Assembly: GCA_030704615.1 (NCBI GenBank) | Contig: CM060731.1 | Coordinates: 51,584,001-51,648,000 of the forward strand | DNA from: Takakia lepidozioides | Lineage: Eukaryota; Plantae; Bryophyta | Length of the DNA stretch: 64,000 nt | Direction: 5' to 3' | Shown here: positions 771 to 50,204 of the stretch, in pieces | How positions within the stretch are numbered: the stretch's first letter is position 1 | Layout of the letters: every line of letters begins with the position of its first letter | The notes under the pieces: model-generated | Seen by the model: only the letters and a program-made list of their open reading frames with translations | Told to the model about the DNA's origin: nothing | The model's database searches: none | Made by a program: the position numbers and the translations under genes

Positions 771-1494
771 TGTCGCACACCTCAATTCGGTAAACTCCCC
801 TTCAAGTCATAGTTACTCGCTTTGATGCGCGCGCCTGACTCCCAACCTGGCCGCCGGGCCAACTTGGAGTTTCGGCTGCTCACCGGGACATAACGGTCCC
901 CTTCCGCTTCCCTCTAAACCCTCCACCTATTTGGGACTAGGAGAATTCCCTTTGGTAGATGGCAGTCCGGAACAACTCCCCACTCTTTGGTCGCTTTCCG
1001 GCTCGCTCGCTTACTCACTAGTTTTTGGTCACCAACGGGCTTGCACCGTTCTCGGGGTTACTACTCCCTATATATACTTCTGTAGCTGTCCGCGGGGGTT
1101 TCATAACCAGCCATGCCATTTTATGGCGAACCACCACGAAAACCCTCGACTCCCGGGGGTGAGTCGCGGTGAGTCTTGGCCCACTCACCGCGGCCCCAAT
1201 GGACCGTGATGAGTCCCAAGACTCCCCACGACTCCCACCTCGAGGTCTCCACCCCATGGTGAGTCCTATGCCACCCCCACTAAGTCCCACTAAGCTACCA
1301 CCACCCCTTGTGGAGCCACCTCCACCGCAACCCGGTGTGCGGGGCTCCACCTAGTGAGCGCCTCCGCCTCCTTGAGTGCCTTGGGCACTCAAGGGTGCTT
1401 CAGCCCCCCATACCTATCGCTGCCGCTGCCCCCACCACAGGGGCAGCCCCTCATGTGTCCCGACCCCCTGCCCTCAAGGCAAAGGGCCGCGACA
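771..1494 (-). repeat. 3' LTR of chromovirus
   Basis: Near-identical to 7019-7742 (only two substitutions noticed); TG...CA ends. Confidence 0.96.
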
Positions 1495-1508
1495 CACACC
1501 CCTACCAA
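1495..1508 (-). other. Polypurine-tract-like plus-strand primer site
   Basis: Minus strand reads TTGGTAGGGGTGTG directly before the 3' LTR. Confidence 0.6.
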
Positions 1509-2400
1509 CAGGGAGTCGATGTCCTCATCGACTTGTCCATTTTGTAGAAACGAACATCCAAGTTGTGGCGTCCCACATCAAGGAGTTTGTTTCCGTACCA
1601 TGGCGTCCCATGGCAAAGAACCAAACCCCACACTTGACTCCACTCTCCACTAGCTAGTTCGGCCGACTTCCTCCAAGTCCCGGCCAAGGGTGGAGCCTCT
1701 CCAGCTCCTCCCAGTGCACTCTTCTTGGCCTACTTCAAGGCCAAGGAACGATCCTCCCCGAGGATCGAATCGCCTTACTGCAACAACATTGCTTGCGATC
1801 GCTCATGATGCCGCTTTTGGCATCACCTTGAGCAAGGGTTCACCTGGAACCCTCTTTGACTAGGAAGATAACCTTGAACCAACCGTGCGCCCCAATCACT
1901 ACAATTGGGTCCGCCTTGGAATGCTGGCCTGAGGTACGGGAACACGCCGAAGCCGCACTACGACTTCGTCCCGAGGCTACACGATTATAGTACGTGAACG
2001 GAAGCACGTAGCTTCCGCGTTAGCCCGCACTACAAGGCAACCCCCTCGGTAGCGCAGTTATAGTACGCGCACGCGCCAGGTGCGCACTAGCACTTGAACT
2101 CCCAAATAAGGCGCAAGTTTCCTTGCCCCTTGGATGGGAGTCACCCGATTTCGGCACTGCGCAAACACACGATTAACCCAATTTACCTCTCCCACTTTTG
2201 TAAGCTAGCATGCATTCTACACACCAGCCAACCACACCATGCATCACCATTCCAAACACAATAGGACGCACAATATTTGGAACCCATTTCCTTTATCACA
2301 AATTTTTGTACAATACAAGTTTTTGCAATCGGATTCCTGAGCTAGCTAAACCGGGCTAAGCATGCATTTCCTCCCCCACGCTCCAAGGTTGATGTCCCCA

Positions 2401-5400
2401 TCAACGCTTCTTCCGCTTTTGAGGTCGCCCTTCGAACGCTGCAACTGCCTCGGATGCGTTTCCCATTTCTGAGGCACGCACCCAAGATGCCTCCACAAGA
2501 TGATAGCCCTTCCATTTGACGAGATACTCCGTTTCTCGGTTCTTGAACCTCCTCGACTTAAGTATTGCCTCCACCTCGTACTCGGGTTCATTTTCATGAT
2601 CCAACAGCATAGGTGGCGGACGCAACACTTGCTGCCGATTCGGACGTGCTTCATCTTTGAAGTAAGGCTTCAAAAGGGAGACATGGAATACTGGGTGCAC
2701 CTTGCTGTTTGCTGGCAGCTCCAATTCATACACATCCTCATTCATAACCCTCCGAATGCGAAAGGGACCCGCATACGGAGGTACGAACTTCGGACTCATT
2801 TCCGGAGGTAGTCGAAAATTCTTGATGTTCAACCAGACCTCTGTGCCTGCCTCAAACTTCACTTCCCTCCGCTTCCGATTCGCCTGCCTTTCATACCGTT
2901 TCCTAGCTTTGGCAATGTTGTACTTTGCGAGCTTCAACAAACGCTCGCGTTCTTCCAGTACCGCCGCTACTGCCGGTTCCTCAACGTCCTGGGCGGCCCA
3001 ACTTGTCGGCACCAGAGGTGCTTTTCCATAGACCAACACAAAAGGGGAAACTCCCGTCGCGGAGTGTTCTGTGTTATTATAACAGAACTCTGCCGCGTCT
3101 AAGTGTTCCATCCAGTCTGATTGGTCTGCCGACACGTAATTCCGCAAGAATTGCTTCACTACGGAATTCACTCTTTCCGTTTGGCCGTCCGTCGTAGGTC
3201 GGAAGGCGGTGCTCATCTTCAGCCTCGTCCCCATCTTCTTCCAAAGTGCTCTCCAGAATTTACTCGTAAACTTTGGGTCGCGGTCCGAGACAATATCCTT
3301 CGGGACTCCATGATGCTTTAAGACGTGGGCGAAGTAAAGTCGCCCTGTCTCCTGCGCAGTTGCCGTCTCCTTGGTGGGGATGAAATGGGCCATTTTACTG
3401 AACCTATCTACCACCACCATGATTGCATCGAATCCTTTTGACAGCGGCATAGCAGTCATGAAATCCATCGAGACGCTTTCCCAAGTCCCCTCTGGAATCG
3501 GCAAGGGTTGTAACAGCCCCGCTTGCTTTTTATACTCGCTCCGGTTTTGTTGGCATGTGGTGCATGTCTTTACATACTCCTCTGCCTCCTCCCTCAGTTT
3601 GGGCCAGAAATACTCTTTCTTCAAGAGTGCCGCAGTGCGCTTGGCTCCACCGTGGCCCGCAAGCGGGCTATCATGGCATTCTCTCAAGAGACTATCCCTG
3701 ATCCCTCCCTTTGGCACATAGAGACGTTTTTGCTTATACCGGAGCAGTCCGTTTTGCAAGTGGAACTGCGATTTAACCCCCATTCTCAAGTTCTGCATCA
3801 CGCACTTTGCCAGCTCATCCTTCCGGCAAGCCTTCCGGATCTTCCTTTGGAGCGCCGTCTCGCCCTTGTACACCAACAAGAGCTGCTGCTTTCTACTTAA
3901 AGCATCGGCCACCACATTGTCCCGTCCCGGTTTGTACTGGATATCCACGTCGAACACTGCCAAAGTATCTTGCCACCTAAGTTGTTTTGGGGACAACTTG
4001 GGCTGCGTGGCAAAATACTTCACCGTGACATTGTCCGTGAACACCTTCACTGGGTTGGAACCAACATAGTGGCGCCAGAGTTCAAGGCAATGTACCACCG
4101 CCTTCATCTCTTTTTCGTGCGTCGGCCACCGTCGCTCCACTTCATTCAGTTTCTTACTTTCGTAAGCCACTGGACGTCCATCTTGCATAAGTACACCCCC
4201 AATTGCGAAGTCCGATGCATCTGTATGAATCTCAAACGGACGATCGAACTCCGGGATTTTTAAGACTGGAGCTTCCGTCATCCGCTGCTTCAATTCAGCA
4301 AAAGCTTGGCCACAAAATGTGTTCCATACCCAGACTTTGGATTTACACAGAAGGTCCGACAGCGGCCCCGCGATCTTGGCGAAATTTCTCACATACTTCC
4401 GGTAATAGGAGGCGAGTCCTAGGAAGGATCGCACTCCCGAGACCGAAGTCGGAGGCTCCCAGTCCAAGATCGCCCTCACCTTTCTGTCATCCATTTTGAT
4501 CCCATCCTGTGTAATCACGTGCCCCAAGAACTCCACTTTTGTGACCCCGAATTCGCACTTTGAAGCTTTGGCATACAGCTTCCCTTCTCGCAATTTTTGG
4601 AACACCCTTTTGAGGTGCTCCAGGTGCTCCTCCTTTGTTTTCGAGTACACCAAGATGTCGTCGATGTACACGATCACAAAGTCATCCAACCACTCCTGGA
4701 AAAGGCTGTTCATCAGCGTGCTAAATGTCGCTGGTGCATTGGTGAGCCCAAAAGGCATCACCAAGAACTCATATGAACCATACCTTGTCCTGCACGCGGT
4801 CTTCTCCTCATCTCCTTCCGCCACCCGAATTTGGTGATAGCCGGAGCGCAAGTCGATCCGGCTGAAATACTTCGCTCCTGCCAACCGATCGAAGAGGTCG
4901 TCGATCCTTGGCAAAGGGTACCGGTTTTTGATAGTCACCTTATTCAGAGCCCTGTAATCGACACACATCCGCAGCGTCCCATCCTTCTTGTCTGCAAATA
5001 GCACCGGGGCTCCGTAAGGTGACTTACTCGGCCGGATGTACCCCTTTGACATTAGATCTTTGAGCTGAGTCTTCAGCTCGACCAACTCTTTGTGGCTCAA
5101 CCGGTAGGGCGCCTTGGCAGGCGGTTCCGATCCCGGTATCACCTCAATTTTGTGGTCAACTCCTCTTCGCGGTGGCAAGCCGCTTGGTAAATCCTCCGGC
5201 ATCACATCCTGGTATTTCTCCAAAATCCCCTTGATCCAATCTGGGCTCGGCTCCCCATCGCCTTCTCCTTTCACTTCTCTAATGTAAAGCAAAAACTGGG
5301 ACTCGTGTGTCTCCTCCACGGCCCACTCCTTTGCTGATAGAAGGTTTATTCGCCCTCCCACGGATTTGGGCGTTTCCGACACTCGTAAAACCTCGCCACC

Positions 5401-6963
5401 ATTCCCACATGGCAGCGTGACTACTCTCTTGCGGCCATCTATGACCGCTCCGGATTTGCTCAAAAAGGTCATTCCCAAAATGAGATCCACTCCATCGATC
5501 TCGCAGATAGTGAAGTTCTCACGTCCCTCCCAACTCCCCAGTTGAAGAGGAACATCAAACGCCAACCTTGTCGCCAACTGAGGTTCTCCTTTGGCAGAGC
5601 GCACCTCAATAGAGGCCCCCACGTCACTTGTCGGGAGTCCCAACTTTCGCGCCGCCGCCGGCGTCATGAAGGAATGCGACGCTCCTATGTCCACCAACAA
5701 CGACACATTAGTTCCGGATATTATCCCATCCACGAACAATAACTGACTCCCTTTTCGTAAGGCGCCAGTTTCCTGATATAACTCACAAGAAAATTTGCCT
5801 ACCTTGCAAGTCCTGGCGACCACCGCTCCCACCAAGCGACTGATGGTATCTTCCGACAGCTCTGTGGTCGCCCGAATCATGTTCAATTGCCGGGGCTTCG
5901 TGCACTTCTTGGCCATGTGCCCGGGCTCCCCGCAATTGAAACACACTCCATCAAAGGTCGCCTTCTGTCCGCCATAAGTCGCTCCACCCGCTTTTCCTTT
6001 CGAAGCACCGGGTGCCGCCTTGACGTGTGAAGGACCTCCCTTCGATTTCCACGTGCCATTTTCACCGCGTGGCCTATCCCACTTCTTTTCCGGTCGGGAG
6101 GAGTCACCTTCCCGCCGGGTCTTCTTGTGGTTCAGCTCCGTATGGCCTTGTCTCTCACCCCTAGGGACATCCGAGAAACATTCAGCTCTCTCAATTGCCT
6201 CGTTCAAAGTCTTGGGTGGCTTCTCCTCCAACTTCCGCCTAGCCCATGGGGCCAGTCCCGCCACAAAGTTGAAGACCATTTCTGGTTCTGCCATGTCCGC
6301 GACTTCGAGCAACAGCACATTGAAAGCCTGGACATACCCCCGAATGTCATCTGTTTGCTTCAAATTCCTTATCTTGTCCCGGGCAAGCCAGGATGCGTTG
6401 AGGGGCACAAACTGTCTCTTCATCAATTCCTTGAACTCACTCCAGTTCAAGGTTTCCGGGCTTGGGCCTCGGTCGTGAAGGCGTTTCTGCCACCATTGTT
6501 GAGCATAGCCCCTCAAATAGGTGGGAGCCACTTCCACCCGATCCTCGTCACTCAACTTGGCCGCCCGGAAGTACTGCTCTAGCTCCAGGAGCCAGGTGTT
6601 GAGTGCCTTCCGGTTTCGAACGCCCTCGAAGGTGCCGGGTTCCTTAGGCTTCACCTTAAACTTTGCCTTGGTGGAAGTGGCATTAGCCGCCTTCAACACG
6701 TCTTTCAACGTCCCGCCAAACTGCGCCAACAACCCTTCCCAAAAGGCTGCCGGCATGGGAGGCATCTCTTGGTTTGTCGGAGCTCTCAAAGATTCCTCGG
6801 GCTCCGACTCCTCGGATTCCTCCCGCTCCTGAGCGGCCTCGTTTTCGGAAACATTAATCGCTTCCTCAAACGGCCGCCTCGGTGACACGTCGCCCCCATC
6901 GGGCTCACCGGGATCATCATCTTTTGGGCCGTTCCGCTTTCGCTTCGGCTTGCCCGACCCCAT
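2401..6963 (-). CDS. Gag-Pol polyprotein (Gag, CCHC knuckle, protease, RT, RNase H, integrase, chromodomain)
   Basis: Uninterrupted ORF, with a likely ATG at 6963 (MGSGKPK). Motifs: [14 protein letters not shown] knuckle; LVDIGAS protease; YIDD RT; TDAS RNase H; HHCC and D-D-E integrase; GPF; C-terminal [20 protein letters not shown] chromodomain. Confidence 0.95.
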
Positions 6964-7004
6964 GATGAGGCCAATCCCAAGGACGATCGCGTACTGAACT
7001 CTAA

Positions 7005-7016
7005 GCTCTGATACCA
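7005..7016 (-). other. Primer binding site for tRNA-iMet
   Basis: Minus strand TGGTATCAGAGC, 2 nt inside the 5' LTR. Confidence 0.93.
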
Positions 7017-7018
7017 AG

Positions 7019-7742
7019 TGTCGCACACCTCAATTCGGTAAACTCCCCTTCAAGTCATAGTTACTCGCTTTGATGCGCGCGCCTGACTCCCAACCTGGCC
7101 GCCGGGCCAACTTGGAGTTTCGGCTGCTCACCGGGACATAACGGTCCCCTTCCGCTTCCCTCTAAACCCTCCACCTATTTGGGACTAGGAGAATTCCCTT
7201 TGGTAGATGGCAGTCCGGAACAACTCCCCACTCTTTGGTCGCTTTCCGGCTCGCTCGCTTACTCACTAGTTTTTGGTCACCAACGGGCTTGCACCGTTCT
7301 CGGGGTTACTACTCCCTATATATACTTCTGTAGCTGTCCGCGGGGGTTTCATAACCAGCCATGCCATTTTATGGCGAACCACCACGAAAACCCTCGACTC
7401 CCGGTGGTGAGTCGCGGTGAGTCTTGGCCCACTCACCGCGGCCCCAATGGACCGTGATGAGTCCCAAGACTCCCCACGACTCCCACCTCGAGGTCTCCAC
7501 CCCATGGTGAGTCCTATGCCACCCCCACTAAGTCCCACTAAGCTACCACCACCCCTTGTGGAGCCACCTCCACCGCAACCCGGTGTGCGGGGCTCCACCT
7601 AGTGAGCGCCTCCGCCTCCTTGAGTGCCTTGGGCACTCAAGGGTGCTTCAGCCCCCCATACCTATCACTGCCGCTGCCCCCACCACAGGGGCAGCCCCTC
7701 ATGTGTCCCGACCCCCTGCCCTCAAGGCAAAGGGCCGCGACA
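7019..7742 (-). repeat. 5' LTR of chromovirus
   Basis: Copy of 771-1494, adjacent to the PBS. Confidence 0.96.
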
Positions 7743-9990: not shown

Positions 9991-10139
9991 GTGAGCCTTT
10001 GTGTCAGAGCCCAAGGTAGAGGATGATTTTTTCCACAGAGGAAAGCGCACCAGCACCTTAAAACAATGTAAAGGGGATGAAATCTGGCTTGGACCCACCA
10101 GTGGTTATTTTATTATTTACGCGTGCATGTTTTGGACTA

Positions 10140-12892
10140 ACAAATGTAGTGGCAGGGATGAGCTCTCAGCGAGATTCATTCATCCAATAGAGCCGCGACA
10201 GTTCCCCGTGGCAGGGAACGGTTCTCGGGTGTTCAAAATGTCCACGTGTGGACCTGGCAGCGGCGTCGAACTGGTCGACAGGATAACGAGTGGGGACTTG
10301 TCAAACAGTTGGGTCATGTTCGACCATATCAAGCGAATTACAAATCACCAGTGGGTGACAATGGGTGCACATGTCTACGACACCCACTGCAGGATGCTAA
10401 TGACAATTGCTATTTGTGAGATGAAAGGAGATGACACACAATCGGAGATGCTTCTTTGGCAGGGAATAAACAAACAGATGGCCAAGGCGGGATTGCCCCC
10501 TCCAAATTTCCGTGGTTTCATGGCGGACAACGCACAAGCAAATTGGGCTGTCATCCGAAGGGTGTACGGGCAAGACCCCAATGTTCCCATGGAAGGCAAG
10601 GAGAGATCTTGTGGGTTCCATTTTCTGCAGAGCCTTTCGCAGTACACAACCAGGCTCGTGGCGCCAGATTTCAGAGAGGAGCACCGTTCCATGTGTCTTG
10701 CGTGGAAGCGCGCTCCCACCTTGGATGATGCAGAGACACAGTTTGCATGTATACGGGCTTGGTGGACATCGTCAGGTGCTGTAAGGAAATCAGACGAGGG
10801 AGCAATGGTCAGTTGGCTAGCATGGTGGCATTATTGTTTCCTCCAGTTCGGCGACTATATGCGGGAGGTGAGTTGCACGAATTCGCATCCCGTTGAATAT
10901 TATTCTTGGCATTATTTGTAACTTGCTTGTAACCTCAACATGTGCTTGTGCAGGAAATGTGTCTCGACTCCGACACCGACATGCCCACGACAAACATGGC
11001 CGAATCAGTGCATTCTTCCTGGCGTGCCTCCTCTGCGGCGCATCTGGTGGACATCCTCACTGCCACAACGGAGGACATTGTGAGGTCAAGCAATGCAGGT
11101 ACAACGAGTTCTTGAAAGGGAAATAGTGGGGCTTGGGGCCGGACAGGCAGGAAATGCTGATGCGGACTGCCTCCAGATCGAAGAATCCTCGGAAGTGGGC
11201 GGCGGCCTTGCGAGAGGGCCTTCGGGACACGCCATTGCTTTGAAGAGGCCAACATTTGGAAGGAGATGTTCATACCCGTCCAGTGAGACGAAGATTTGAC
11301 GAGGCACCTGGTGGGGAAGAGGATTCATGGCGAGCTGACAAGAATATTTGCACGCTCCCTCGTGGTCCCGTGATGTTGCCCGAGGAGGTCTTGTCGAGCA
11401 CCGCAAAGTCCTGCACGTTCAAGATCGCCATCTCCTTTGAGCACAGGGCACGTGCCCGAGGAACATAACGAGCCATCTGTAGTAACGCAGTATGGAGACA
11501 AGAGCCATTGGAGATCAATTCCTTCTAGGCCTTCACTGGATGACCGGAGTTGGTGCCACCATTAGCTAGCTGACTACTCCCTTCACTTTAACAATGGAGA
11601 AAGGCATGAAGTAGTGGTTCCCTTGAAAGCAATGAAGATCAAGGTTGGGTCTGCTACAGCCAATCTGTCCAGAGTCCAAGCCCTGGTAAAGGAGGTATAG
11701 CAGAACTCTCACTCCAACCTCAATTGGAATGATTTCTACAAGTTTCAGCCTGATCTTCAACTCTTATATCAGTGGCATGTTCCTGGTGCTAAGGAAAGAA
11801 CAAGGGTGCCCATAGCTATTCCAAAGAATTCTACTCTAATTCGTGCACCTCTCAACATCACCATCCCTGCCTTGACCCAAAGGGTGGTCAAGTCTAGTCT
11901 GGCTTTCTTGTGTCCTGCTGCTCATTTCCTAGAAATTGAGGGTTGGAGGAGATTGACTGCTCTTAAGCACTGCCTGGTGGCCACTGGTGTTCTTGATAGA
12001 GGATATAGACAGGAGGTTAAGATCCTGATTGCTAATCCTGAACGCTTCCCTGTGACGGAGTCACAGTGGAGAATTGCAAGGAAATTGCCGGCATTTCGAG
12101 GGAAGTGCTGCGCCATTCAGGTGGATACGAGAGCACGCTGTGGTGAGATGATTCGGAGGAACCCACACGGTGCTGTACCTGCACCTTGTTTCAGCGGCAG
12201 ATTTTTGACTCCCACATTTGCTCACGCAGACGTTTTGGTTCTGTAGGCACGACATAATGACCTATGTATTTGGCAAGCCCAAATACGGGATTCAGGGAAT
12301 GCCGGAGCCTCCAGGCGTCTGGCCTGTTGCACCGGGTTGCAGCCTCTCTCAAAATGAGGCGGATGCTCTATCTGCAGCATGATTTCGAATGGTGCAATGC
12401 ACAGACGTCCCGGCCCACGCATTTCCAGTTCCTCAGACCCAGCCATTGCAGACTGCTCGGTCCAGTAGAGACGGATTGGACAATTCTGCACATCCCACAA
12501 TGCGATTCGGAAGAATGAAGAGACGACACCCCCCCAACAAGTTGAATGAGACTCGGATTGCCAATGCCCTTGGGATGGCTTGCACTATTCAGAGCTCCGT
12601 GGACGTACCTCCACCCGGCCTTGGGCGTGTTTATCGGATGGCAATGGCCGGCTCGGCTGTACGCGACGATGTATACACAATTACGATTGGAGTGGAGCCG
12701 ACTTGCAATTGTACGGACTTCTCGTTGATGGAAGCAAAGAAGGGTTCAAAGTATTATCCGTGCAAACATCTATATTACATTTACCTGAAGAGGTTGAGGA
12801 TGAACGTGACTATTGATGACTTTATTCATGCACCGGCGTTGAGCGTGAACGAGCTGCACAAACTCCTCCTTAGGGATTCCAGAAATCATTGA
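10140..12892 (+). pseudogene. Mutator-like (MULE) DDE transposase with C-terminal SWIM zinc finger, decayed and interrupted
   Basis: Motifs WVMFDH (D1), FMADNA (D2), CGFH (CxxH), an intron at ~10868-10953, then TTNMAES (E). SWIM motif CNCTDF...PCKHLY at ~12704-12775. Frameshifts and stops present, with a foreign insert at ~11507-12040. Confidence 0.75.
11507..12040 (+). mobile_element. Retroelement pol fragment: protease C-terminus followed by a dUTPase-like domain
   Basis: FLLGLHWMTGVGATIS resembles the retropepsin LLGxxW end. Further on, LIRAPLNITIPALTQRVVKSSLAFLCPAAHFLEI...VATGVLDRGYRQEVKILIAN matches trimeric dUTPase motifs 1-3 (GVIDxDYRGEIxVxxxN). Confidence 0.6.
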
Positions 12893-17830: not shown

Positions 17831-18440
17831 TGGAAGGTAATTATGTCTGTTGGTCATGAGCAAGAGCGTTTAGAGATAGGGGGAGACTAGTGGGATGAGA
17901 GCATTCTGGGACTAGGAATTGCTTTAGTCTCTCTTCCTTGTAGTCTTCCACCCTCTATGTAGGCCAAAACCTTTCCGTAGGTGGAGGCAAGAGTCAGTCC
18001 GGGTTTGGGCTGGGGTGTCCTTGCAGGAGCGACACTGTGGAGTGTTTTTTTTGGTGTGGGGGAGTTACTGTCTTGATTTTCTTGTGTTTGGATCCCCCCC
18101 ACACCTGCATGCTTGACTGTGTGCCATGCCAATTTTGTGTGGGCATTTGTTTTCATAGGAGATTGGTCCGCATTTGATCACCGGCCAATCCTAGAGCATG
18201 CTGTCGGTGCTGAGGCTAGGGTGATGACCAGTCAGACCATCATTGTTTCTGTTATGATGAGGCTGGGTTGATGACCAGCAGACCATATGAGTGCTTGCGG
18301 TGGATGCAGGTGCAGGTTTATGTTACGAACCTAGTAGTCTAAGCCATAAGCTGCAACAGGTTCTCTACCCGGTTACCTTGTGGAAAGGGGGATTAGAGAC
18401 AGGTTTACAACAGATGTGGTTGTGAGTTTTCATCACGGAG

Positions 18441-19790
18441 GTGCCACCAGTTGCTGAGGAGAGTGCCGGTACGAGCACCAGCGATACTAGTGGGTATACA
18501 AGACGAGGTGTGCGGTTCAGGCCACCAGTGTCTTCTGAGGAAGGTTCAGACTCAGAGTTGGGAGGATTCTCGCCGAGGGTGCAAGCCATTTCCATGCCAT
18601 TGTTGTGGGATACGATGGAGGAAATGTATGGAGCTACTAAGGGGCCACGTCGGTACTCTGGAGCTGTGGGCACCATTGAGCTTGATGATTTCATACAAGA
18701 GTTTGATAGTTGGTGTGATTTGCAGTAGATGCGCAATCCACAACTGTTTACGCCTTGGGGTTGTTTTAGCACCTTGAGGGGCTACCCATGGATGATTACC
18801 ATTAGATTAGGCGGGGACATGAGGTGGAGATTGAGGAATGGCGGGTGTATTGGTCACCTGACTATGTCTCCATCACTAGAGGCACAAGGGCAGTGGTGAC
18901 ACCGGCAGATACACCGGCAACTTCTATAAGCAGCAGTGGGACGTCAAGTGGAACAGAAGCTAGAAAGTCCACCCAAGCTCCTGCTGCAGCACCAACACCC
19001 ATGCCTGCCTTTAACCCAGTTGTGGAGTTCTTCGAGGAGTTAAGGAGAAACTACCAAGGGATAATGACAGAGAAGTTACGGAGCTTGCAAGAGTTCCAAC
19101 GAAGGTCTAATGAGAGTTTGAGGGAGGCTTACACTCGCATGAGGCGCTTGATAAACGTAACCCAAGGGGTTACAGAAGCTCAAGCAGTCCAGTTCTGGTA
19201 TGGGATCATGGACAAGGAGTTGAGGAGAAGGGTGCGGGATGCAACTCTCCTACAAGTGGACCAACCCACCTCAGCAAATGTGTTTTTGCTGGCAGAGCGG
19301 ATAGAGCTCAATATGGTGTGGTCATGGTGGGGTTTGGTAAGGAGACACAACGAAGTGGGGCTCTTGGCCAACAACAACCACTACCCCATCGTGCTCAAGG
19401 CAACAAGGGGGCTCAGGCGAAGCCCAGGGAAGGGCCGAGAGGATCTCAATTGCAGAGGTCACTTCCTTCATTCTCAGGCCAACAACAGTTGGGTGTGACA
19501 TGTTGGGATTGTGGAGGACCCCATGTTAAGAGAGATTGCCCGGAAAGAGGCAAAGGGACGGCACAGGCACAGCCTACACAACTACAATGTGGGCATTGTA
19601 GCAAGTATGGGCATGAAGAGGCCCATTGTTATAACTTGCATCTTGAGCTACGGCCAAGCCAGTTCCAAGGGAACAATGGTGGCCAAGGACGAGGCAATGT
19701 AGTCCAGAGAGGGTAGAGGAGGCAGAGGTCGGGGTGGAGGACGTAACCAAAACCAAGGAACATAGGGTCAAGGTCAAGGTCATGTCCAAG
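18441..19790 (+). pseudogene. Gag with two zinc knuckles
   Basis: LDDFIQEFDSWCD and LQEFQRRSNESLREAYTRMRRL (Gag core); knuckles CWDCGGPHVKRDC and CGHCSKYGHEEAHC; frameshifted. Confidence 0.8.
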
Positions 19791-20499
19791 GTATGGTGGA
19801 TAGACTTGCCCAGCTAGAGCAACATCTTGCTGCCATGGCCACTACTCATGTTGCGCCAGCTCCAAGGCTTGAGGTTCAAGCCCCACCTGCACAACCTCCT
19901 ATGCCTAGGAAAGACCAGATTGGTATGGGCTTCATATGTAGAGCTGCACTTGCAGGATCATGGCATATGGACTCTGTAGCTGCTGTCACTCGAGCAACAA
20001 TGTGTGCTCCTGAGCCAAGATGAGCGGATGTGGATTTTGATCCACAAATAGGGGAAGCAAGTCGGCAGACAAGGCTTCCACAGTCTTTCACATTGGCTGA
20101 GACAGTGCCAACTATGCCATCGATGGCACCCACTCGCCCAAGTGTGTCAGAAGTAGAGCCACGAGTGTCATTAGGGAGAGTTGGTATGGCTCGGGAAATG
20201 CCAGTGGGTGGTACTGCAAAGCAAGGTGCAGCCAGTACATTGTTGGGGGCGGCTACGGCAATTTTCCAAGCTCCATTGTTTTCTGCCACGACAATTGCAA
20301 TGTCGGGGATGCGGCCAGTTGCAGTGTTTAGACTGGCAGCTGCATCTGTGAGAGTGGTGATGCATCGGCACTATCTGCAGGGATAACGGATCAGGTGTAG
20401 TGCATGGATGCCTTGGATTCAAGGGTGAAAACAGCCACAACTGCGCCATGGCAAGCGGCAGCTGCAAGATTGCAGGAATTGCCAGCTATACTAGCTATT

Positions 20500-20960
20500 G
20501 CGCGTAGTATGGTGACTCCTGGGGTAGTCTTGGTGGACAATCAGGATGGTGTGTTTCAGTTGGGTGGGCTAGCCGGGAGGAGGTATAGGCCACTGCGGGT
20601 CTTGTTGGACTCGGGAGCACAACCATTGATGTTGGGGAGAGCAGCAATTGCAGGCTTGGGCCTTACAGAGGCGGATTTGGAGCCTTGTCCTTTCCAAATT
20701 CAAACATCTTTGGGCAGTTTAGAGAAGACATGATGGATTACACGCCATGAGCTCTTCATTCGATTGCAGCCAGATCATCCTACAGATGGTTCATGAGAGC
20801 TAAAGCCATTGTTACGGATGCAATGTCTTATGATGTGCTTTGTTGGTGGGGCTGTGTTATACCCGATGGGCTTTACTTTGGACTTTTGGGAGGAAACGAC
20901 ATCCTACAGGCCGGAATGGCAGTCAGGGGATGGTCGACGTGCACTGCTCCCAGTGCGGTT
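20500..20960 (+). pseudogene. Aspartic protease domain
   Basis: LRVLLDSGAQPLMLG active site and YDVL/VGG C-terminal motif across a frameshift. Confidence 0.85.
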
Positions 20961-21309
20961 TATTGGGAATGTAGCGGTGGATCATAGGAACATGATGCCC
21001 ACATTAGCTGCATTCTCAAGGGTGGTGGCTTGGGGTGGTGAGCTCTTGGAGGGCAATAGCCATGCAGATGATAGGCCACCACCTGATGAGGACAAACAAT
21101 TGGCATACAAGGCTGATTTGCTTCCTCATGTGTCTGTTCATATTCCACTATGGGGTACAGTTAGGAATTTGCATCGAGTAGCAAGCGAGTGTGTGCACCA
21201 AGCATGGTAGGAGGCCTATCCATTGGTGAGTGAGGGGAGTTCAGTGACATCACCTCGACCTCCTCAGTTAGCTCCTTTGGATATAGTGCCCATTACCTGA
21301 CAACCACCT

Positions 21310-22280
21310 GACTCAGGGATTTGTTTGCTAGACCTGTTTGGAGGCATGAGCACTGGGCTTGCAGGAGTGTTGCAAGCTGGGATTAAAGTACGCAAGTACT
21401 TGTATGTGGAGAAGGATGAGATAACTCGGCGTATTTCTATGCGCCACATCGCCTTGCTCACACACCGGTATCCTGAGTTGTTGCCTCTCTCAGCAATTCA
21501 AGGGTATCAAAAGGCCTTGCCAGCAAACATTACCTTGCTGGGGGCGGATGATTTGGACTGGCATGGTGCCATTGACTTGGTGATAGCTGGATGGCCTTGC
21601 CAATGACACTCTCCCGCAGGTCATGGGAACGGCTTGCATGATGCACGATCACATTTGTTTTGGGAGATGTTGAGAGTGTTGCGTGACTTGCAGACGAGGC
21701 AAGTGCAATCTCTAGCCTATATCTTGGAGAATGTTCCTCTTATGGGGGACTCTCGAGCTAGGGTTATGGCCAGTGTGCATCAGGTGCAACCTTGGATTAG
21801 ATCGGCGGTGCTATTGGATGCAGCAGCGGTGGGATCACGAGCGCATCGACCTCGATTGTGGTGGACCAATGTTGCACCACCAGAGCTGGTCAAGAGAGCA
21901 TACGATTCCATTCAACGGCCACCCAATCTCACAGTTGAGGGCATTTTGGACCAAGGGAGGCAACCACAGAGGGGGCGACATGATGACCATCCACCTCTAA
22001 CAGTGGTAAATCAAATGGGGCAGCCACGTGCGGCCTTGCCTACGCTCATGAGCTTTCCCTCGTCTCATGCTTTTTCGAGACAATGGTCCTGGGTTGATTT
22101 GGGACAGTGTGCTATAGCAATTGGTGGAGCCCAATGCAGATGAGCGAGAGCGGGCAATGGGATTTGCCACGGGTACTACAGCTGTGTCAGCTCTGTCAGA
22201 GGCATCACGCCGATATGTGTTGGGTCAAGCAATGGATCTAAATTGCTTGACATGGGTCATTGGCTTGTGCATGGCTGAGC
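21310..22280 (+). pseudogene. DNMT3-like C5 cytosine DNA methyltransferase domain within pol
   Basis: All motifs occur in order: I LLDLFGGMSTG; II YVEKD; IV DLVIAGWPCQ; V GLHDARSHLFWE; VI YILENV; VIII DAAAVGSRAHRPRLWWTN; IX EPNADERERAMGFATGTT; X RRYVLGQAMD. There is a stop at 21604, a frameshift at ~22075 and a second stop shortly after. Confidence 0.92.
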
Positions 22281-22801
22281 AATGGAGGTTGCAGACAGTG
22301 GTGGCTACTTCTGCACTCCCATTTGGTATTGTATCCCCTCTGCCAACCGGGACGGTTGAGGCAGTGAGTGGGGGCGGGCACAGGATCATGGGGTGCAAAC
22401 ACCCATGGCAGATGTGGGATGAGATGCGGAAAGAGAGAGTCCTTGGATCTCTCAAGCAGCAGTATGAGGAGTGGGGAGAGCCATACACTGAGGATCAGTT
22501 GGAGGCCAAGGTGGCCAATGTTTTTGAAGAGGTTGAGAATCTTTCTTCCCCAGAGGATGTTCTCAAGGTGGTTATGGCAGAACAAGTGGAGGCTACGCCA
22601 CAGTCAGATTGGGCGGACAAGGCCCAAGAGGTTTCTATGTAGCAACCAAAGGATTCGTCTCCTACCTCCAAGCCTGATGTACCCAAGGTTGCAGTCACTG
22701 AGAACAATTGGGAACCAGATGTTGGACCTACAGTCACCGGAGGAGAGAGACGGAGGATCCAACGATTTCTAAGGGCTTATAGAAATTGCTTTGTCTTCGG
22801 T

Positions 22802-24208
22802 TTGAAGGATTTGAGGAGTTTGAAGGGTCAGGAGATTCGTATTGATTTGGCAAGTGACACGCCAATCTTTCGAAGGCCCTACCGGTATAGTGACATGGAG
22901 AGGTCATTGATCCAGTCACGGACTATGGAGTTGTTCGAAGCTGGATTGGTGGAGTTGTCAGGCGGGGAGTATGCCTCGGCAATGGTGATGCTAGCTAAGA
23001 GGGATATCTATGGCAATTGGACAGAAAGAAGGATGTGTGGGGACTATCGTCCTGTGAACCATCAGACTAAGTCCGATAGATATGCCATGCCAACTCCAGA
23101 GGAAATCTTTGATGCCATTGGGCATGCGAAGGTGTTTAGCACATTGGACTTACAATCCGGTTACCACCAGTTACCAATCAAAGAGGCTGACAAGCAAAAG
23201 ACGACATTTTGGGGGATTGACCAACATGGGAAGGATTGTTTGTACCAATGGCGCTTCCTACCATTTGGGTTGAAGAATGCTCCTGTAGAGTTTCAGAGGG
23301 TTATGGATAGGATTCTCGCGGGGCTAGACTTTGCCCGGTGTTACATTGATGACATCATCGTCTTTAGTGCTACGGTTGAGCAGCATGAGAGACACCTTCA
23401 GGTGATGTTTGAGCGCTTCAGAGCGCATGGGTTGAAATTGCACCCTGGGAAGTGCAAGTTCTTCCACAACCAGATTTTGTCTCTGGGCCACATGATATAC
23501 CCTGGAGGATTGGGTGTTCAAAAGACGAAGGTGGAGGCCATTACACGCATTCCACGCCCCATAGATGTTAGCAGAGTTCGTGCTTTCATGGGGTTGACAA
23601 ACTACTATCGACGGTTTGTTAAGGGATTTAGCAGCATTGCAAAGGCTCTTACTAAGTTGACCAAGGTGGGTCAGGAGTGGCAGTGGGAGGAGGAGCTGGA
23701 GGAAACCTTTGAGGAACTCAATGCTCGATTGACTTCTGCACCTATTCTGAGGCGGCCTATTCGGGGGCGGCCTTTCCAGCTACATACGGATTGGAGAATG
23801 CTGGGGATTGGAGCAGTGCTCACACAGAGGGATGATGAGGGAAGAGAGTTCGTAGTGGCATATGCTAGCCACTCAAACAATGATGTCGAGGCGAATTATA
23901 GTTCATATGAAGGGGAGTGTCTAGCTGCGGTATGGGCAGTGACACATTTCAGATGCTACCTCTATGGCAATCTCTTCACCCTTGTCACGGATCACCAACC
24001 ATTGAAGTGGTTGATGGAGTTAGACAAGCTAACAAAGAAGCTTGCACGGTGGGCACTAATGCTTCAAGAATACGACTTTCAGGTGGTGCATCGAGCCGGT
24101 ATTGTCAATCGGGATGCAGATGGATTGAGTCGTAATCCATGCACAAGCGAGCATGATGATACTGGAGCTCGGTGGCATGGTGAGACGGATGAGGAGATGG
24201 TGCCATGA
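22802..24208 (+). CDS. Reverse transcriptase + RNase H (Gypsy)
   Basis: RMCGDYRPVN, LPFGLKNAP, YIDD, LHTDW..GIGAVLTQ, YEGECLA, TDHQPL, ADGLSR. Confidence 0.93.
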   Translation: MKDLRSLKGQEIRIDLASDTPIFRRPYRYSDMERSLIQSRTMELFEAGLVELSGGEYASAMVMLAKRDIYGNWTERRMCGDYRPVNHQTKSDRYAMPTPEEIFDAIGHAKVFSTLDLQSGYHQLPIKEADKQKTTFWGIDQHGKDCLYQWRFLPFGLKNAPVEFQRVMDRILAGLDFARCYIDDIIVFSATVEQHERHLQVMFERFRAHGLKLHPGKCKFFHNQILSLGHMIYPGGLGVQKTKVEAITRIPRPIDVSRVRAFMGLTNYYRRFVKGFSSIAKALTKLTKVGQEWQWEEELEETFEELNARLTSAPILRRPIRGRPFQLHTDWRMLGIGAVLTQRDDEGREFVVAYASHSNNDVEANYSSYEGECLAAVWAVTHFRCYLYGNLFTLVTDHQPLKWLMELDKLTKKLARWALMLQEYDFQVVHRAGIVNRDADGLSRNPCTSEHDDTGARWHGETDEEMVP

Positions 24209-24487
24209 TGGCATGCATCTGCCTTTTTGTGCATCCTAGCAATAGGAGCTCAAGCTGGTCCATCCCATAGCATTGGTCATGTAGATGGTGTGCATGACGA
24301 TCCGGAGATCAGTGAGGAGCTTGGTGGTGCTAAAGATGTGCATGAAGATGCAACAGTGTTGGTCTACCTTCGTATTAGAGAGACAGCAACTAGTGTGACT
24401 GCTAAGGAGAGAGATCGGATCCTACAACGAGCTAAGAGGTTCAAGTGGGAGGGGACTCACCTACTCCGAGTATGGGAGGATGGATGA

Positions 24488-25786
24488 GTGAGGATTGTGC
24501 CTCATCCAACACAACGAGCGCGATTGGTACGCCATGCCCATGAGGAGTTGGGACATTTTGGGGTGCGACGCACTCATAGTTTGCTGCAAGGACAATACTG
24601 GTGGCGGGGCATGCACACGGATGTGCAACAGTTAGTGGCAAGGTGCATGGTGTGTGATAGAGTGCGAGCTTCTTTCAATGCACCTACTCCACAATTGCAT
24701 CCTTTACCCATTATGGGTTTGGGCTATCGTTGGAGTCTTGACTTCGCAGGCCCATTGTCACTAACGATTCGCCATAACAAGTATGTGCTGGTGATGGTGG
24801 AACATTTCTCCAAGTGGATTGAACTGGTGGCATTGCCTGACAAGGCAAGTGAGGGGGCTACGTATGCATTCTTAGATCGAGTGCTTAACCAATTTGGTGC
24901 TCCAGCCGAGGTACTCACGGACCAGGGGAGAGAGTTCTTGGGGGAGTTTCAGGCTTTGTGTGAGCAAGCCTTGATAGATCACCGCACTACTTCTCGGGAT
25001 CATCCCGAGGCTGATGGCCTGGCAGAGAGGGTTGTACAAACAGTCAAGCGAGGCTTGCGCAAGTATGGCTTGCAGAAGGGACACTTAGGAGATTGGGACC
25101 TTCAATTACCTTGGTTGGCCATGGGCTACAAATTTAACAAACAAGCATCACTTGCCTCGTTCTCGCCTTATTTCCTTCTCTGTGGCCGAGAGCTTGATTT
25201 GTCTGCATCTATTCGCAGGGAGACTGCAGTAGTTCTCAACCTTGATGATCCGGATGTGTGGACACAAGCACGTGCCCAACGGGCAGAGTTGTTCAAGAGA
25301 GTCATGCCTATGGCTTTTGAGAACCTTGCTATTGCCCAACACCGAGACACATTGAGGTACGCCACTATACGTGGAGGTGGATATCGGCTAGGTGTTCGGC
25401 GTTTCCACCCTAGGGACTATGTGTATCTGCAGCAGACAACGCCTACGACTTTGGATGTCACAGCAGGGCGTGTGATTCTAAGGGTCCAGGAGGTGTTGCC
25501 TTCAGGAGTGTTGATTCTGGAGGGTCGAGATGACATGGTATGGAAGGACCATGTGCGCCATTGTGCGCCATGTCACCTTCCACATGTGGATGGGAGGATA
25601 GATCCCAACCTTGCAGTGGTACCTGCAGGGTTGCGTTGCATGCTATGTGGGCATGCTGGTGGTGCCGCGACCATGTTGGTGTGTGACAAATGCTCAAAGG
25701 GGTGGCACATGGGATGCTTGACACCGCCACTTGAGGAGGTTCCTAGTGGAGAATGGTTGTGTCCACGATGCCTTGGACATAGGTAG
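24488..25786 (+). CDS. Integrase with C-terminal PHD finger
   Basis: HAHEELGH...CMVC zinc domain; SLDFAG/TDQG/LAER DDE; C4HC3 PHD CMLC...CDKCSKGWHMGCLTPPLEEVPSGEWLCPRC at ~25636-25770. Confidence 0.92.
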   Translation: MRIVPHPTQRARLVRHAHEELGHFGVRRTHSLLQGQYWWRGMHTDVQQLVARCMVCDRVRASFNAPTPQLHPLPIMGLGYRWSLDFAGPLSLTIRHNKYVLVMVEHFSKWIELVALPDKASEGATYAFLDRVLNQFGAPAEVLTDQGREFLGEFQALCEQALIDHRTTSRDHPEADGLAERVVQTVKRGLRKYGLQKGHLGDWDLQLPWLAMGYKFNKQASLASFSPYFLLCGRELDLSASIRRETAVVLNLDDPDVWTQARAQRAELFKRVMPMAFENLAIAQHRDTLRYATIRGGGYRLGVRRFHPRDYVYLQQTTPTTLDVTAGRVILRVQEVLPSGVLILEGRDDMVWKDHVRHCAPCHLPHVDGRIDPNLAVVPAGLRCMLCGHAGGAATMLVCDKCSKGWHMGCLTPPLEEVPSGEWLCPRCLGHR

Positions 25787-26126
25787 TGGGCATGACAATG
25801 GTGGAATTGACAAGTGATCCAAGGTCTAGCTGATGGGAGCTCAACGCCATGGATATTTAATTGAAGATCATGGATTGCAAGAAGGCGAGTAACGATGGGG
25901 CTACTTTTGCACCCGGCCTCTTGATCTATTGACTTTAGATACTGGGACATGTGCGATTGAAGACCAAGCGATGATTTTATTGAGATGGATACTTGTCAGC
26001 TATCCGGTGTTAGAGGGACCTAATCACCAGCTAGGGGGGCGATTGTGGCATAGCTTTCTAGGATTGTGTGCTTAGAATGTATGGTGGACAGCGATGTATG
26101 TTGTGGCACGATGCTTAGGTGCATGA

Positions 26127-27898
26127 CAAGTCCATTGCCGCATCCAACCGCCCTGCACGGCCAAGAAGGTCCACCATACAACCGAAATGCTCCACTGAAG
26201 GAGTTAGATGATGGTCTCGACTCATGGCATGAAAGTAATGAAGACCTTCATGTTCTAGGTCAATTTGGCTACATGCTGAGAGAAGAGATGTGAAAGTGAT
26301 GCCATTTGGCTTGAAACCTTCCTGATGCAATTGTTCAAATAGTCGCACGGCCTCCCTACCACCCCCATGCTGAGCATATGCTGCGATCATGGCATTCCAT
26401 GAGACCATATCTCGTTTAGCCATATTGTTGAACACTTGACGTGCATCCTTTACACTCCCACATCTAGCATACATGCTAATAAGTGTATTATCCAGATTTA
26501 CGTATGACGTAATTCCAGCTTTCATTATATCGGCATGGACTTCTTTGCCTTTTCTTAGGGCTCCTATGTTGGCACACACATTGAGAACACAAATGAATGT
26601 GATTCTATCGGGCACCACCCCTTCCTGTTGCATTAGCTCATAGATCTCAAAAGCCTCCCTACCACATCCATGCTGTGCATATCCTGCAATCATGGCATTC
26701 CATGAGACCACATCTCCTTCAACCATATTGTCAAACACTTGATGCGAATCCTTCATGCTCCCACATTTGGCATACATGTCCAGCAAGATATTCTCCTGAA
26801 TGATATCTCGCACAATCCCACTTTTGATGATGTCAGCATGGACCTGCTTGCCATTTTCGAGGACTCCCAGGCTGGCACATGGATTCAAAATGCAAGTGAA
26901 TGTGACCCTGTCACGCATCACCCCTTCCCATTGCATTTGCTCATACACCTCAAATGCTTCCTTGCTGCACCCATGCTGAGCATATCCTGCGATCATGGCA
27001 TTCCACGAAAACACATCTCGTTGAGCCATACTGTCAAACACCTGGCGTGCATCCTTCATGCTCCCGCATTTGGCATACATGTCAGCAAGGGCAGTCTCCA
27101 GGACGCACACGCACTGAGAAGGCAAAGGAACATCACCCTATTGGGCATTACCCCTTCCCGATGCATTTGCTCATAGATTTTAAAAGCCTCCCTACCATGT
27201 CCATGCTGAGCATATCCCGCAATCATCGCACTCCATGAAACCACATCTCGTTTTGCCATATTGTCAAAGACTAGGCACGCATCCTCCATGCTCCCACATT
27301 TGGCATACATGTCAACAAGGGTATTCTCCAAAATGATGTCTACACGAATTCCACTTTTAATGATGTCAGCATGGACTCTCTGCCTTTCTCCATTGTTCCA
27401 TGACTCGCACATGCATTCAGAATACAAGTAAATGTAACCCTGTCCGGCATCACCCCTTCCCATCACATTTGCTCATAGGTCTTGAAAGCCTCCCTGGAAC
27501 AACCATGCTTGGCATATCCTGCTATCATTATAGTCCAGGTAACCAAAGTTCGTTCAGGCATTTTGTCAAACACATCGCGTGCATCCACCACGCACTCCCG
27601 CACTTTGGATTATGTGCGCATGAACCTGCTTTCCCACTGCTAGGGCTTTCATGTTGATGCACTCCTGCAAGAGACATACGTATGTATTGGAGTCTGCCTG
27701 GATGCCTTGTTGGTTCAACGTAAGCAGCGCCTCCTTCAGCCGTCCAGCCTTACATAATGTTCGCACAGCCTCACAAGTGGAAAAAGAGTTCTTGGTGACT
27801 CTTTCAATCCGAGTGGGGATGGTGGGAATCGGACCCTCACTGTCAGTCTGATGTCCAGCAAACAGTGTATGATTCAAGCCCGCCCTCCTGCATGACAT
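26127..27898 (-). pseudogene. PLS-class PPR pseudogene, frameshifted and 3'-truncated
   Basis: Repeated MYAKCGS..DAR.VF..M..RDVVSWNAMIAGYAQHG motifs are split over several frames. The sequence ends at CMVDLLGRAGRL with no E/DYW domain. Confidence 0.9.
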
Positions 27899-31874: not shown

Positions 31875-33288
31875 TGGAACCCACAACTTATGAGCATTTT
31901 CTAGAACCAAATGCCAATCTCAGCCTAGGAGGGATAATGAAGAATAATCAGGGTAGTAACATTCACAACACTAGTTTGCAAGGCGACGATCCAGATAAAC
32001 AACACTTGAGTCCTACTATTCTAGGCAATGTCAATGCAAATATTGGATAATCTTTTAAGTTTGACACGAAAAGTTGTGATAGAAATCCATGGCTTGTCTA
32101 TGTGGAAAATGCTTGTAGATGCATTGGAATATCTCTCTTGGCGTTTGCAACAGATGATGCTTAGGCAGCACTTGTGCCAAGAACATTGTCTTGACATTAA
32201 GAGTTCATCAGTATAAATTACCTGCTTTGGCAAAAGAGAATCCATGTGCAATCACTAGTGCATCTGATAGAGCAATCTTTCTGTGCAAGAGGCCTTCTGC
32301 AAATGTGATGATCAGTAGAGCTCTGCACCAAGTAGCCTTCAATCTAATTTGCAGTGGACTCACTTTTATTTCTTTTTTCCTCCTCTGATTTCCTAATTCT
32401 TCCGCTCCGTCTAATGATGGCTGTGGCTATTTTGTTTCACATTGTATGTCACGATATGAAGTGGATGACCCTCCCGAGAGACAAAGATAGGAGAGAAAGG
32501 AAGTTGTGGCTTGTAACCGCTCATGCCTCCTGATGACCCAAAGCGAAAGGTCCCAAGTATTATTTTCAACATCAACTATTATAAAGTCTGTAGATCAAAT
32601 GTTGCAAGACCAAAGTTCTGATTGGTCAGAAAGCTTTGTTGATATTTCAAAGGCTCTAGTCCTGATTTGACCATTGTGCACAAGGCTGTCTTTCAAGGCC
32701 AAAATCTTGCAATAGAAAGATGTTTAACCATGTTCTCTACATTTGGAGCTTTGCTACAATCCATAAAATCATAGTAATCTTTCAAGAGGATGTAACTAAC
32801 AAGTAGGTGACAAGTCTTCTAACCGCCAGCGTGTACGTTGGGCTTGCTCTATCTCTTTTGTGTTCCCAATTTGTATTAGAATCAGTTCTTGCTTCAGTGA
32901 CAAAAAAGATCCAACTGATCAGTTGAAAATAATTGCCAAGAGGCAGATATGAATGGCCACATGATAATTTGAATTTATTTCTACATCTTTTTCTACCTGG
33001 TTGTGAATGAAATAATGCAGGTCAGTGGGATAATGGCGGAATTTGGAGGTTCACCTTTCCACTAGATCTAGACCCCGCTTCATCAAGTCAGATCCTAGGA
33101 ATGACACCAAGTTCGTCGGGATGTTGAACAGTTCTCCACCTCCGCTTGAACAAGGTTTGTTGCTTAAGCTTTCCTCATATAAAATGGACTCCTTTAATGA
33201 TCTCCCCAACATGTTGATAGCTTACTTTGCATATTACATGTTTTGAGCTCTGACGATATCAAAACTATACAGTACCTCCGGGTATAGA

Positions 33289-33951
33289 ATGCAGTCATCA
33301 TCGCCCAACTACTGGACAGTTTCCAAAAGCAACGCCAATCACACTGGACACACATGCCGCGAATGTCGTGGTACCATCTTTGTCAACGAATCGATCTTTG
33401 TGCGTGATGGACGCAAAATCCGTCTCTTCTATCACGAGAAATGTTTTTCTGGGGACGCAGATCCCCGAACACAGGGGAGTAGCTCCTACAACGATAGATG
33501 GCAGCAAATCAGCAGCGAAGCTCCAATCAACAAGGGATATGGGAAGTGGTGGACAAGCGAATATGGGTATCATGGGGCGCCAACAAACATAAACCCATGT
33601 TCAGTTGGGCCGTCGCCTTCACTGAGAAAGGGGAGTGGGACTTCCAGAGAAGGTAAGCAATTAGCAGAAACACTCCCAATGGATGAGTCAAAGTTCAGGG
33701 GTCCAATAGATAGAATGGAGGGGACTTCAAGGGAGACTGTTTTTGGAAGCAGTAGATCTGTAATAGAGAAATTGAGGAAATCTGGACTTGGTAGTTGTAG
33801 TACGAGTATGAATGAATCCTCACAAAGCTTAGATGATTCTTTGAAGTCTTTAACAATAGACATTACTCCTGTCAGTCTAATTGATCGCAGGGCACCTAAA
33901 CCGGATGTTATAGGGACCATCACCATTTTCCTTGGAGATCAAGAGAAGTAG
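33289..33951 (+). CDS. Stand-alone PARP-type zinc-finger protein (220 aa, single exon)
   Basis: CRECRGTI...DGRKIRLFYHEKCF has the CxxC...HxxC zf-PARP spacing, followed by a low-complexity Ser-rich tail. Confidence 0.7.
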   Translation: MQSSSPNYWTVSKSNANHTGHTCRECRGTIFVNESIFVRDGRKIRLFYHEKCFSGDADPRTQGSSSYNDRWQQISSEAPINKGYGKWWTSEYGYHGAPTNINPCSVGPSPSLRKGSGTSREGKQLAETLPMDESKFRGPIDRMEGTSRETVFGSSRSVIEKLRKSGLGSCSTSMNESSQSLDDSLKSLTIDITPVSLIDRRAPKPDVIGTITIFLGDQEK

Positions 33952-50154: not shown

Positions 50155-50204
50155 GAGTTGAGTGAAAAGAGAAGATTCAATAGACAAAGCAACGGCGGTG
50201 CCAG

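Follow-up and report, generated by a model that had tools for sequence, protein, structure and literature searches.

Retrotransposons that carry their own methyltransferase are known from dinoflagellates and from one charophyte alga. The closest described system is KnitGypsy-Dnmt3 of Klebsormidium nitens, a Gypsy element with DIRS-like terminal repeats in the arrangement A-coding-B-A-B and with a DNMT3-like domain described as part of the Pol frame; in the passages cited here it is reported from this single charophyte (de Mendoza et al. 2018, PMC5890265). Its domain produced no methylation in yeast, a result that the authors considered inconclusive, and domains borne by SymbioDIRS elements were found to carry out de novo CG methylation in yeast (PMC5890265). 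SymbioDIRS-Dnmt3 and SymbioLINE-Dnmt of Symbiodinium resemble the element treated here in being retrotransposons with a C5 methyltransferase, but they belong to other retrotransposon orders (tyrosine recombinase or LINE) and are described as independent captures (PMC5890265). A 2019 review, in the section cited, treats transposon methylases as absent from land plants (PMC6338049), and a 2025 paper repeats, in its cited part, the streptophyte and dinoflagellate range (PMC12344493). In the literature searched, which excluded subscription papers, theses and repeat libraries, the name KnitGypsy was found only in the 2018 paper (PMC5890265), and no report was found of DNMT-bearing elements in land plants or of the conserved stop codon described below.

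Two further systems invite comparison. Host DNMT3 genes of non-flowering plants (PpDNMT3a/b) have the same unpermuted DNMT3-type catalytic domain, followed in the cited account by a C-terminal DUF3444 (PMC6453930), whereas the element domain is without DUF3444, intronless and set in a Gypsy frame. In the type I readthrough of tobacco mosaic virus (TMV), an in-frame UAG followed by CAR-YYA stands ahead of the polymerase (PMC3159437, PMC2754532). UAG-CAR-YYA is given as the tobamovirus readthrough consensus (PMC3159437), and readthrough in the TMV-type context is put at about 10% in plants, where UAA in the same context is also read through (PMC2754532). The arrangement proposed below differs in that it parts Gag-PR-DNMT from RT-RH-INT in a retrotransposon, with readthrough as a prediction.

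Here we analyse a window of 64,000 nucleotides from the Takakia lepidozioides genome. It contains a Ty3/Gypsy retrotransposon with the domain order gag, protease (PR), DNA methyltransferase (DNMT), reverse transcriptase (RT), RNase H (RH), integrase (INT) and PHD finger (Table 1), Pfam returning Retrotrans_gag, Asp_protease_2, DNA_methylase, RVT_1, RT_RNaseH, Integrase_H2C2, rve and PHD in this order along 18426-25783. Our reading, to which we give a little better than even credence, is that this element, now decayed, belongs to a long-established Gypsy lineage of green plants, that of KnitGypsy-Dnmt3; that its DNMT3-like domain closes a Gag-protease-DNMT frame, with a conserved and probably leaky stop behind it; and that the enzyme would methylate the element's own cDNA in the particle.

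Table 1. Features of the element and of the host gene at its right end (positions in the window)
Feature	Position	Strand	Evidence or remark
Likely 5' end and leader, boundary approximate	17850..18425	+	inferred
gag, decayed, with two zinc knuckles (19501-19539, 19588-19629)	18426..19713	+	Pfam Retrotrans_gag E 9e-4
Aspartic protease, LLDSGAQ at 20602	20401..20793	+	Pfam Asp_protease_2 E 0.005
DNMT3-like C5 cytosine methyltransferase domain, motifs I-X in canonical order	21301..22290	+	broken at 21604, ~22071-22076, 22115
Variable linker, end of Gag-PR-DNMT frame	22291..22639	+	open in frame
Conserved in-frame stop, predicted readthrough context TAG CAA CCA	22640..22648	+	consensus UAG-CAR-YYA (PMC3159437, cited passage)
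Reverse transcriptase, YIDD at 23342	22709..23600	+	Pfam RVT_1 E 8e-30
RNase H	23684..24073	+	Pfam RT_RNaseH E 2e-34
Integrase, H2C2 zinc finger and core	24506..25300	+	Pfam Integrase_H2C2 E 1e-16, rve E 2e-14
C-terminal PHD finger, CHD4/KDM5/PHF21A-like	25637..25771	+	Pfam PHD E 1.5e-10; best PDB matches
Polypurine tract	26033..26039	+	40 nt match same place in 8 relatives at 85-93%
Single 3' terminal repeat piece (B-type), ends CATGACA	26041..26128	+	lies behind the PPT and ends like its counterparts in relatives
Host PLS-class PPR gene, cut off at element's right end	26129..27800	-	Pfam PPR

The ends of the element were placed by comparison with its relatives. On the left, GGTCATG near 17852 resembles the TGTCATG with which relatives begin, and from the bin at 17904 onward the summed depth of contigs is about 20 times higher. 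Five relatives (L031, L036, L064, L068 and L077, among 24 sequences self-compared, many of them without both ends) have A-coding-B-A-B ends like those of KnitGypsy-Dnmt3 (PMC5890265), and relatives with such split repeats start with TGTCATG and finish with CA. The window copy keeps one B-type piece only, with no direct repeat pair and no second A and B copy after 26128. Another LTR element of green algae, REM1 of Chlamydomonas reinhardtii, likewise combines a PHD finger with terminal repeats of an unusual kind. Across its frameshifts the window gag shows 41-58% identity to the natural protein P0061.

Beyond the right end, the match of the cut PPR gene to its paralog at 56978-57277 begins at 26128; its E/DYW end was not found elsewhere within the window. 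Three PLS-class PPR genes lie on the minus strand in total (26129-27800, 50200-52200 and 56674-58881), the last of which has an E motif and the remnant of a DYW-like tail. At 33247-33948 there is an intronless-looking gene for a PARP-type zinc finger with a patchy range (a moss, liverworts, Vitrella and chytrid fungi), and one gene of the window has its best named matches in Ceratodon, Riccia and Calypogeia. Other mobile DNA is present as well. A young chromodomain-bearing Gypsy element without a methyltransferase occupies 771-7742 on the minus strand, with a 1,542-residue open frame from gag to chromo (ORF 2404-7029) and 724-base LTRs that are 99.7% identical. Transposase-like frames with a SWIM finger at 9995-12889 are likely, on weak evidence, a Mutator-type element, and long terminal inverted repeats (81-451 bases, 94-100% complementary) at 43577-44683 and 54506-56160 likely mark MITE or foldback elements.

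The sequence-only reading of this locus had reported a full, ordered set of C5 methyltransferase motifs on the plus strand between protease and RT, and all of them are there. LDLFGG starts at 21328, VEKD at 21406, GWPCQ at 21589, ENV at 21727, AHRPRLWWTN at 21841, ERERAMGF at 22142 and LGQAMD at 22220, a motif span of 21328-22237 that follows the canonical, unpermuted order and includes the catalytic Cys, Glu and Arg. Pfam assigns the stretch, with X put at the first stop, to DNA_methylase (E 6.5e-11), and its identity to Marchantia and Calypogeia proteins is 62-67%. The DNMT3-type wording of the motifs is supported. Matched against solved structures, the stretch finds DNMT3A first (E 1.4e-10), followed by DRM2 (2e-4) and M.HhaI (8e-4), and the family profile of the domain, searched against the solved sequences, gives DNMT3A at E 1e-25, DRM at 2e-14, M.HhaI at 4e-9 and DNMT2 at 4e-5. 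An AlphaFold model of the natural relative P0095 (pLDDT 82) brings DNMT3A/B/C to the top Foldseek ranks, with a TM score of 0.84 by target. The window domain is thus DNMT3-type by sequence, and the predicted fold of its relative is DNMT3-like. DUF3444 gave no Pfam match in 29 relatives or in the frames of the window.

This copy is dead, carrying stops and one frameshift. A TGA (21604) directly follows the catalytic PCQ; the frameshift and a TAG (22115) interrupt the domain further on, and more stops are found in gag, PR and pol. In contigs from the host's runs, the stop at 22115 and the extra base are missing from many other copies, and most of the differences among copies are transitions whose direction fits the decay of methylated C.

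The proposal that a related system persisted in embryophytes is upheld by families in Marchantia, Calypogeia and Sphagnum and by many contigs from the host's runs. In run X1, 4,964 contigs, whose depth is not copy number, fall on 21280-22800 at no less than 80% likeness; over the host runs, summed depth (likewise no copy number) is lower for DNMT than for RT and integrase. A protein search returned 50 relatives at E<=1e-5, headed by Marchantia polymorpha (many loci, mostly 54-72% identity), with two entries from Calypogeia (Calypogeia fissa), two from Sphagnum (S. troendelagicum and S. fallax) and then one from Closterium. The same order is found elsewhere: all 10 hits of an RT search whose single frame covers both the family protease and RT have the DNMT between the two, and the best 80 of 443 confirmed metagenome loci read gag-PR-DNMT-RT-RH-INT-PHD wherever the contig reaches, bar internal deletions and nested insertions. 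We conclude that this is a land-plant family with many related copies in the host's runs and not a one-off. Most of L060-L080 form a second, distant PR-DNMT-RT subfamily of about 40% identity, from the same metagenome collection and with the same split repeats.

A profile search extended the family to 559 clusters at E<=1e-30, with two layouts, PR-DNMT-RT and RT-RH-DNMT-INT-PHD, among the 150 listed. When 20 clusters were looked up, most of them nameless, the named members with PR-DNMT-RT were Closterium and Klebsormidium. In Klebsormidium, KFL_009030040 reads PR-DNMT-RT-RH-INT; the locus tags of KFL_013780020 (PR-DNMT) and KFL_013780010 (RT-RH-INT) are neighbours, and the contig of each measures 7,497 bases; P0380, and P0172 taken with P0321, are the Klebsormidium proteins that show the PR-DNMT-RT order. 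The second layout belongs to a sister clade of P0037, P0038, P0076, P0119, P0151, P0202 and some 120 other proteins, whose named members are chlorophytes (Scenedesmus, Hariotina and Cymbomonas), and for which no report was found in the literature searched. Outside eukaryotes, viral contigs yielded 1 weak match among 31 candidates, and prokaryote genomes a single strong one, L082, the remainder being weak, partial methylase matches at E 1e-12 or worse. L082 (1-6281) is a whole Gypsy element of the DNMT family; its contig sits in a cyanobacterial metagenome bin but is probably eukaryotic DNA placed there in error. An Atlas search placed a streptophyte DNA-methylase cluster at the top and phage clusters next, an outcome that does not discriminate between origins.

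Phylogenies, with support given as SH-aLRT and built without host DNMT3 sequences, unite the family. All DNMT-bearing elements form one clade in the RT-RNase H trees (100 with 87 rows; 99 with 40 rows under a mixture model), in which the window element groups with Marchantia and the Sphagnum-like family. The PR-DNMT-RT group alone reaches 89 in one RT tree and has no resolution in the other; in the DNMT tree it is one clade at 98, and the window element joins Marchantia, Calypogeia and Sphagnum at 99. Among 54 paired elements, 18/23 strong RT splits recur in the DNMT tree and 19/20 in the reverse comparison, with 0 conflicts, and both layouts likely descend from one capture.

Kinship with the Klebsormidium element, also suggested by the sequence-only reading, stood up in the shared order, in the RT and DNMT trees and in the split repeats of relatives. 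The two have in common a Gypsy body with an unpermuted DNMT3-like domain, the PR-DNMT-RT order, purifying selection and a place in one RT/DNMT clade. Because complete relatives share the A-coding-B-A-B ends, comparison of the sequences assigns the window element to the KnitGypsy-Dnmt3 lineage, surviving in land plants and not newly captured. What sets it apart is its occurrence in liverworts, peat mosses and a Takakia host, where the cited passages of the original description name one charophyte (PMC5890265), together with the position of its DNMT at the end of a Gag-PR frame, before a conserved stop in a readthrough-type context.

The comparison of dN/dS across copies that had been suggested gives 0.09-0.24 between subfamilies and in one close pair (dS being near saturation between subfamilies) and 0.47-0.93 among dead copies of one family, where RT behaves alike. 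For the DNMT of the window against six relatives with measurable dS the ratio is 0.10-0.125, with dS near saturation and three more pairs saturated; for L001 against Sphagnum-like copies it is 0.17-0.24, and for the close, unsaturated pair L068-L063 it is 0.09. Of 154 classified full-length domains, some of them near-duplicates and with 42 unclassified ones omitted, 153 retain the catalytic Cys, all 154 the Glu of ENV and 153 each of the two motif VIII Arg. These patterns indicate that purifying selection has maintained the domain.

A further claim, that the DNMT lies inside pol and is continuous with the polyprotein, did not hold, since a stop at 22640 separates it from RT and is conserved even in relatives. 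Natural proteins of the window's clade are Gag-PR-DNMT, ending 50-117 residues past the DNMT, and RT-RH-INT-PHD is a separate product; both are in one phase in the DNA, with a single stop between them, 23-30 codons before RT. This in-frame stop is present in 37/38 loci of the clade, from five subfamilies; as 33 of the 38 belong to one Sphagnum-like family and some are the same insertion twice, the independent count is the five subfamilies. Its context is TAG CAA CCA in the window and L001, TAG CAA TCA in L082, TAG or TAA followed by CAA CCC in the Sphagnum-like family and TAG TAG CCA in L048, so that three of five subfamilies have the exact UAG-CAR-YYA and the other two are one base off. In the background of fetched loci, CARYYA follows a stop triplet in 66/31,781 cases. 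Since the flanking residues differ between subfamilies, the six bases are conserved in their own right. In L082 the DNMT-RT stop is the sole stop in 6.3 kb, and among the differences listed for the host contigs there are ones at 22634 and 22639 and none at 22640-22648. Decay of a Gln or Trp codon can produce a look-alike in a single copy, as at 22115 and 21298, but not family-wide. Taken together, the conserved stop is likely read through by ribosomes, as the sequence context suggests.

The arrangement is not general. DNMT and RT share an open frame, with no stop at the junction, in 16 loci of the distant subfamily and in many algal polyproteins, for example P0250, P0312, P0323 and, inside the stop-bearing clade, P0308. 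Expression of the DNMT at Gag levels is therefore not needed across the lineage.

Under our reading, most ribosomes would halt at the UAG and release Gag-PR-DNMT, and a minority would continue into RT-RNase H-integrase-PHD. Gag and Pol would be made in their customary proportion, but with the methyltransferase among the abundant products, hence many DNMT molecules per RT or integrase in each particle. The protease would free the DNMT domain, which, packaged with the RNA, would be present during synthesis of the double-stranded cDNA, its likeliest substrate. Methylated before integration, new copies may be marked like host DNA, or arrive pre-silenced and so be cheaper for the host, and host maintenance enzymes could preserve the marks afterwards; through its PHD finger the element would be directed to integrate into chromatin where H3K4 is unmethylated. 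The observed/expected CpG ratio is 0.46 in the element and 0.30 in a host PPR gene; depletion no stronger than in the host gene offers no pointer to self-methylation. In a broader version of this reading, which we hold more tentatively, at somewhat short of even, one DNMT3-like enzyme has been carried throughout by a single ancient Gypsy clade of green plants, ranging from chlorophytes to liverworts and mosses. On this view, the land-plant branch would encode the enzyme together with Gag, ahead of a leaky stop, pack it into particles in quantity and have its cDNA methylated by the time it integrates.

Other explanations were weighed. The same element under the same selection could use its DNMT once inserted or in trans: carried along with the integration complex and directed by the PHD finger, the enzyme would methylate the target site or sister copies and so curb the activity of its own family. 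PHD fingers of the CHD4, KDM5 and PHF21A type are readers of unmethylated H3K4, as is the ADD of DNMT3. The family PHD matches these three, and the residue two before the His is Gly or Ala, not Trp, in 118/121 family PHDs, a pattern that fits such readers; in the chlorophyte clade, moreover, the DNMT directly precedes the integrase. In the window's clade, however, the DNMT precedes the stop, along with Gag, and would be fused to integrase only in readthrough products, and we regard this alternative as rather unlikely, although it is the strongest of the set.

Close behind it, and also unlikely, is an alternative that concerns the expression step only, in which the stop is genuine and RT-integrase is instead produced through splicing or reinitiation. 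The Sphagnum-like family has an ATG two codons after the stop, and TAA in 11 of its loci. A stem 8-11 bases 3' of the stop is predicted in 4/4 folded sequences, but the consensus fold is weak (-5.7 kcal/mol) and the stem is significant in only two of them, L082 (z -3.9) and L016 (-2.6), not in the window (-0.9), so that the stem is no more than a hint. Against this, a single open frame runs on both sides of the stop, the window and L001 are without an ATG before the conserved RT start, exact CAR-YYA recurs in three subfamilies with differing flanking residues, and UAA in the TMV context is still leaky in plants in the cited work (PMC2754532), all of which argue for readthrough.

Less probable again is a role other than DNA methylation, for instance one on the element's RNA, which the domain might methylate or bind within the particle. 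The yeast result for the Klebsormidium domain would suit this, as would Gag-level amounts, which are appropriate to a structural or RNA role, and RNA methylation has been raised for the LINE-borne DNMTs (PMC5890265, cited passages). Sequence and fold are nonetheless nearest to DNMT3A/B (E 1e-25) and far from the DNMT2 profile match (E 4e-5), and the related DIRS-borne DNMT3 domains methylate CG in DNA (PMC5890265). A last alternative, that a host DNMT3 or a bacterial methylase was captured once only or recently, or that the scaffold is contaminated with algal DNA, is largely refuted and very improbable: apart from the bacterial bin of L082 and trees without host DNMT3 in its favour, it is countered by the family range, congruent trees and a dN/dS of about 0.1, by weak, partial bacterial matches with L082 a whole Gypsy element and likely mis-binned, by the absence from the relatives scanned of DUF3444, the partner of host plant DNMT3 in the cited account (PMC6453930), and by flanks with PLS-class PPR genes (E motif) and a gene matching a moss and two liverworts best. 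A bacterial origin of the domain was considered and is not supported, prokaryote genomes having given weak methylases and one whole Gypsy element.

Contrary to the statement in the cited section of the 2019 review (PMC6338049), element families with a methyltransferase are found in Marchantia, Calypogeia, Sphagnum and the Takakia host. A known kind of element is thereby extended to land plants, with a likely readthrough arrangement that was not found in the literature searched; the conserved stop predicts an enzyme made at Gag levels. Copies of such elements are mistakable for host DNA methyltransferase genes in bryophyte annotations. In Marchantia, natural unbroken Gag-PR-DNMT frames are annotated as hypothetical genes and methylation mutants exist, so the question is testable there. 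If the proposed working is true, land-plant genomes would receive pre-methylated insertions from a transposon-encoded writer.
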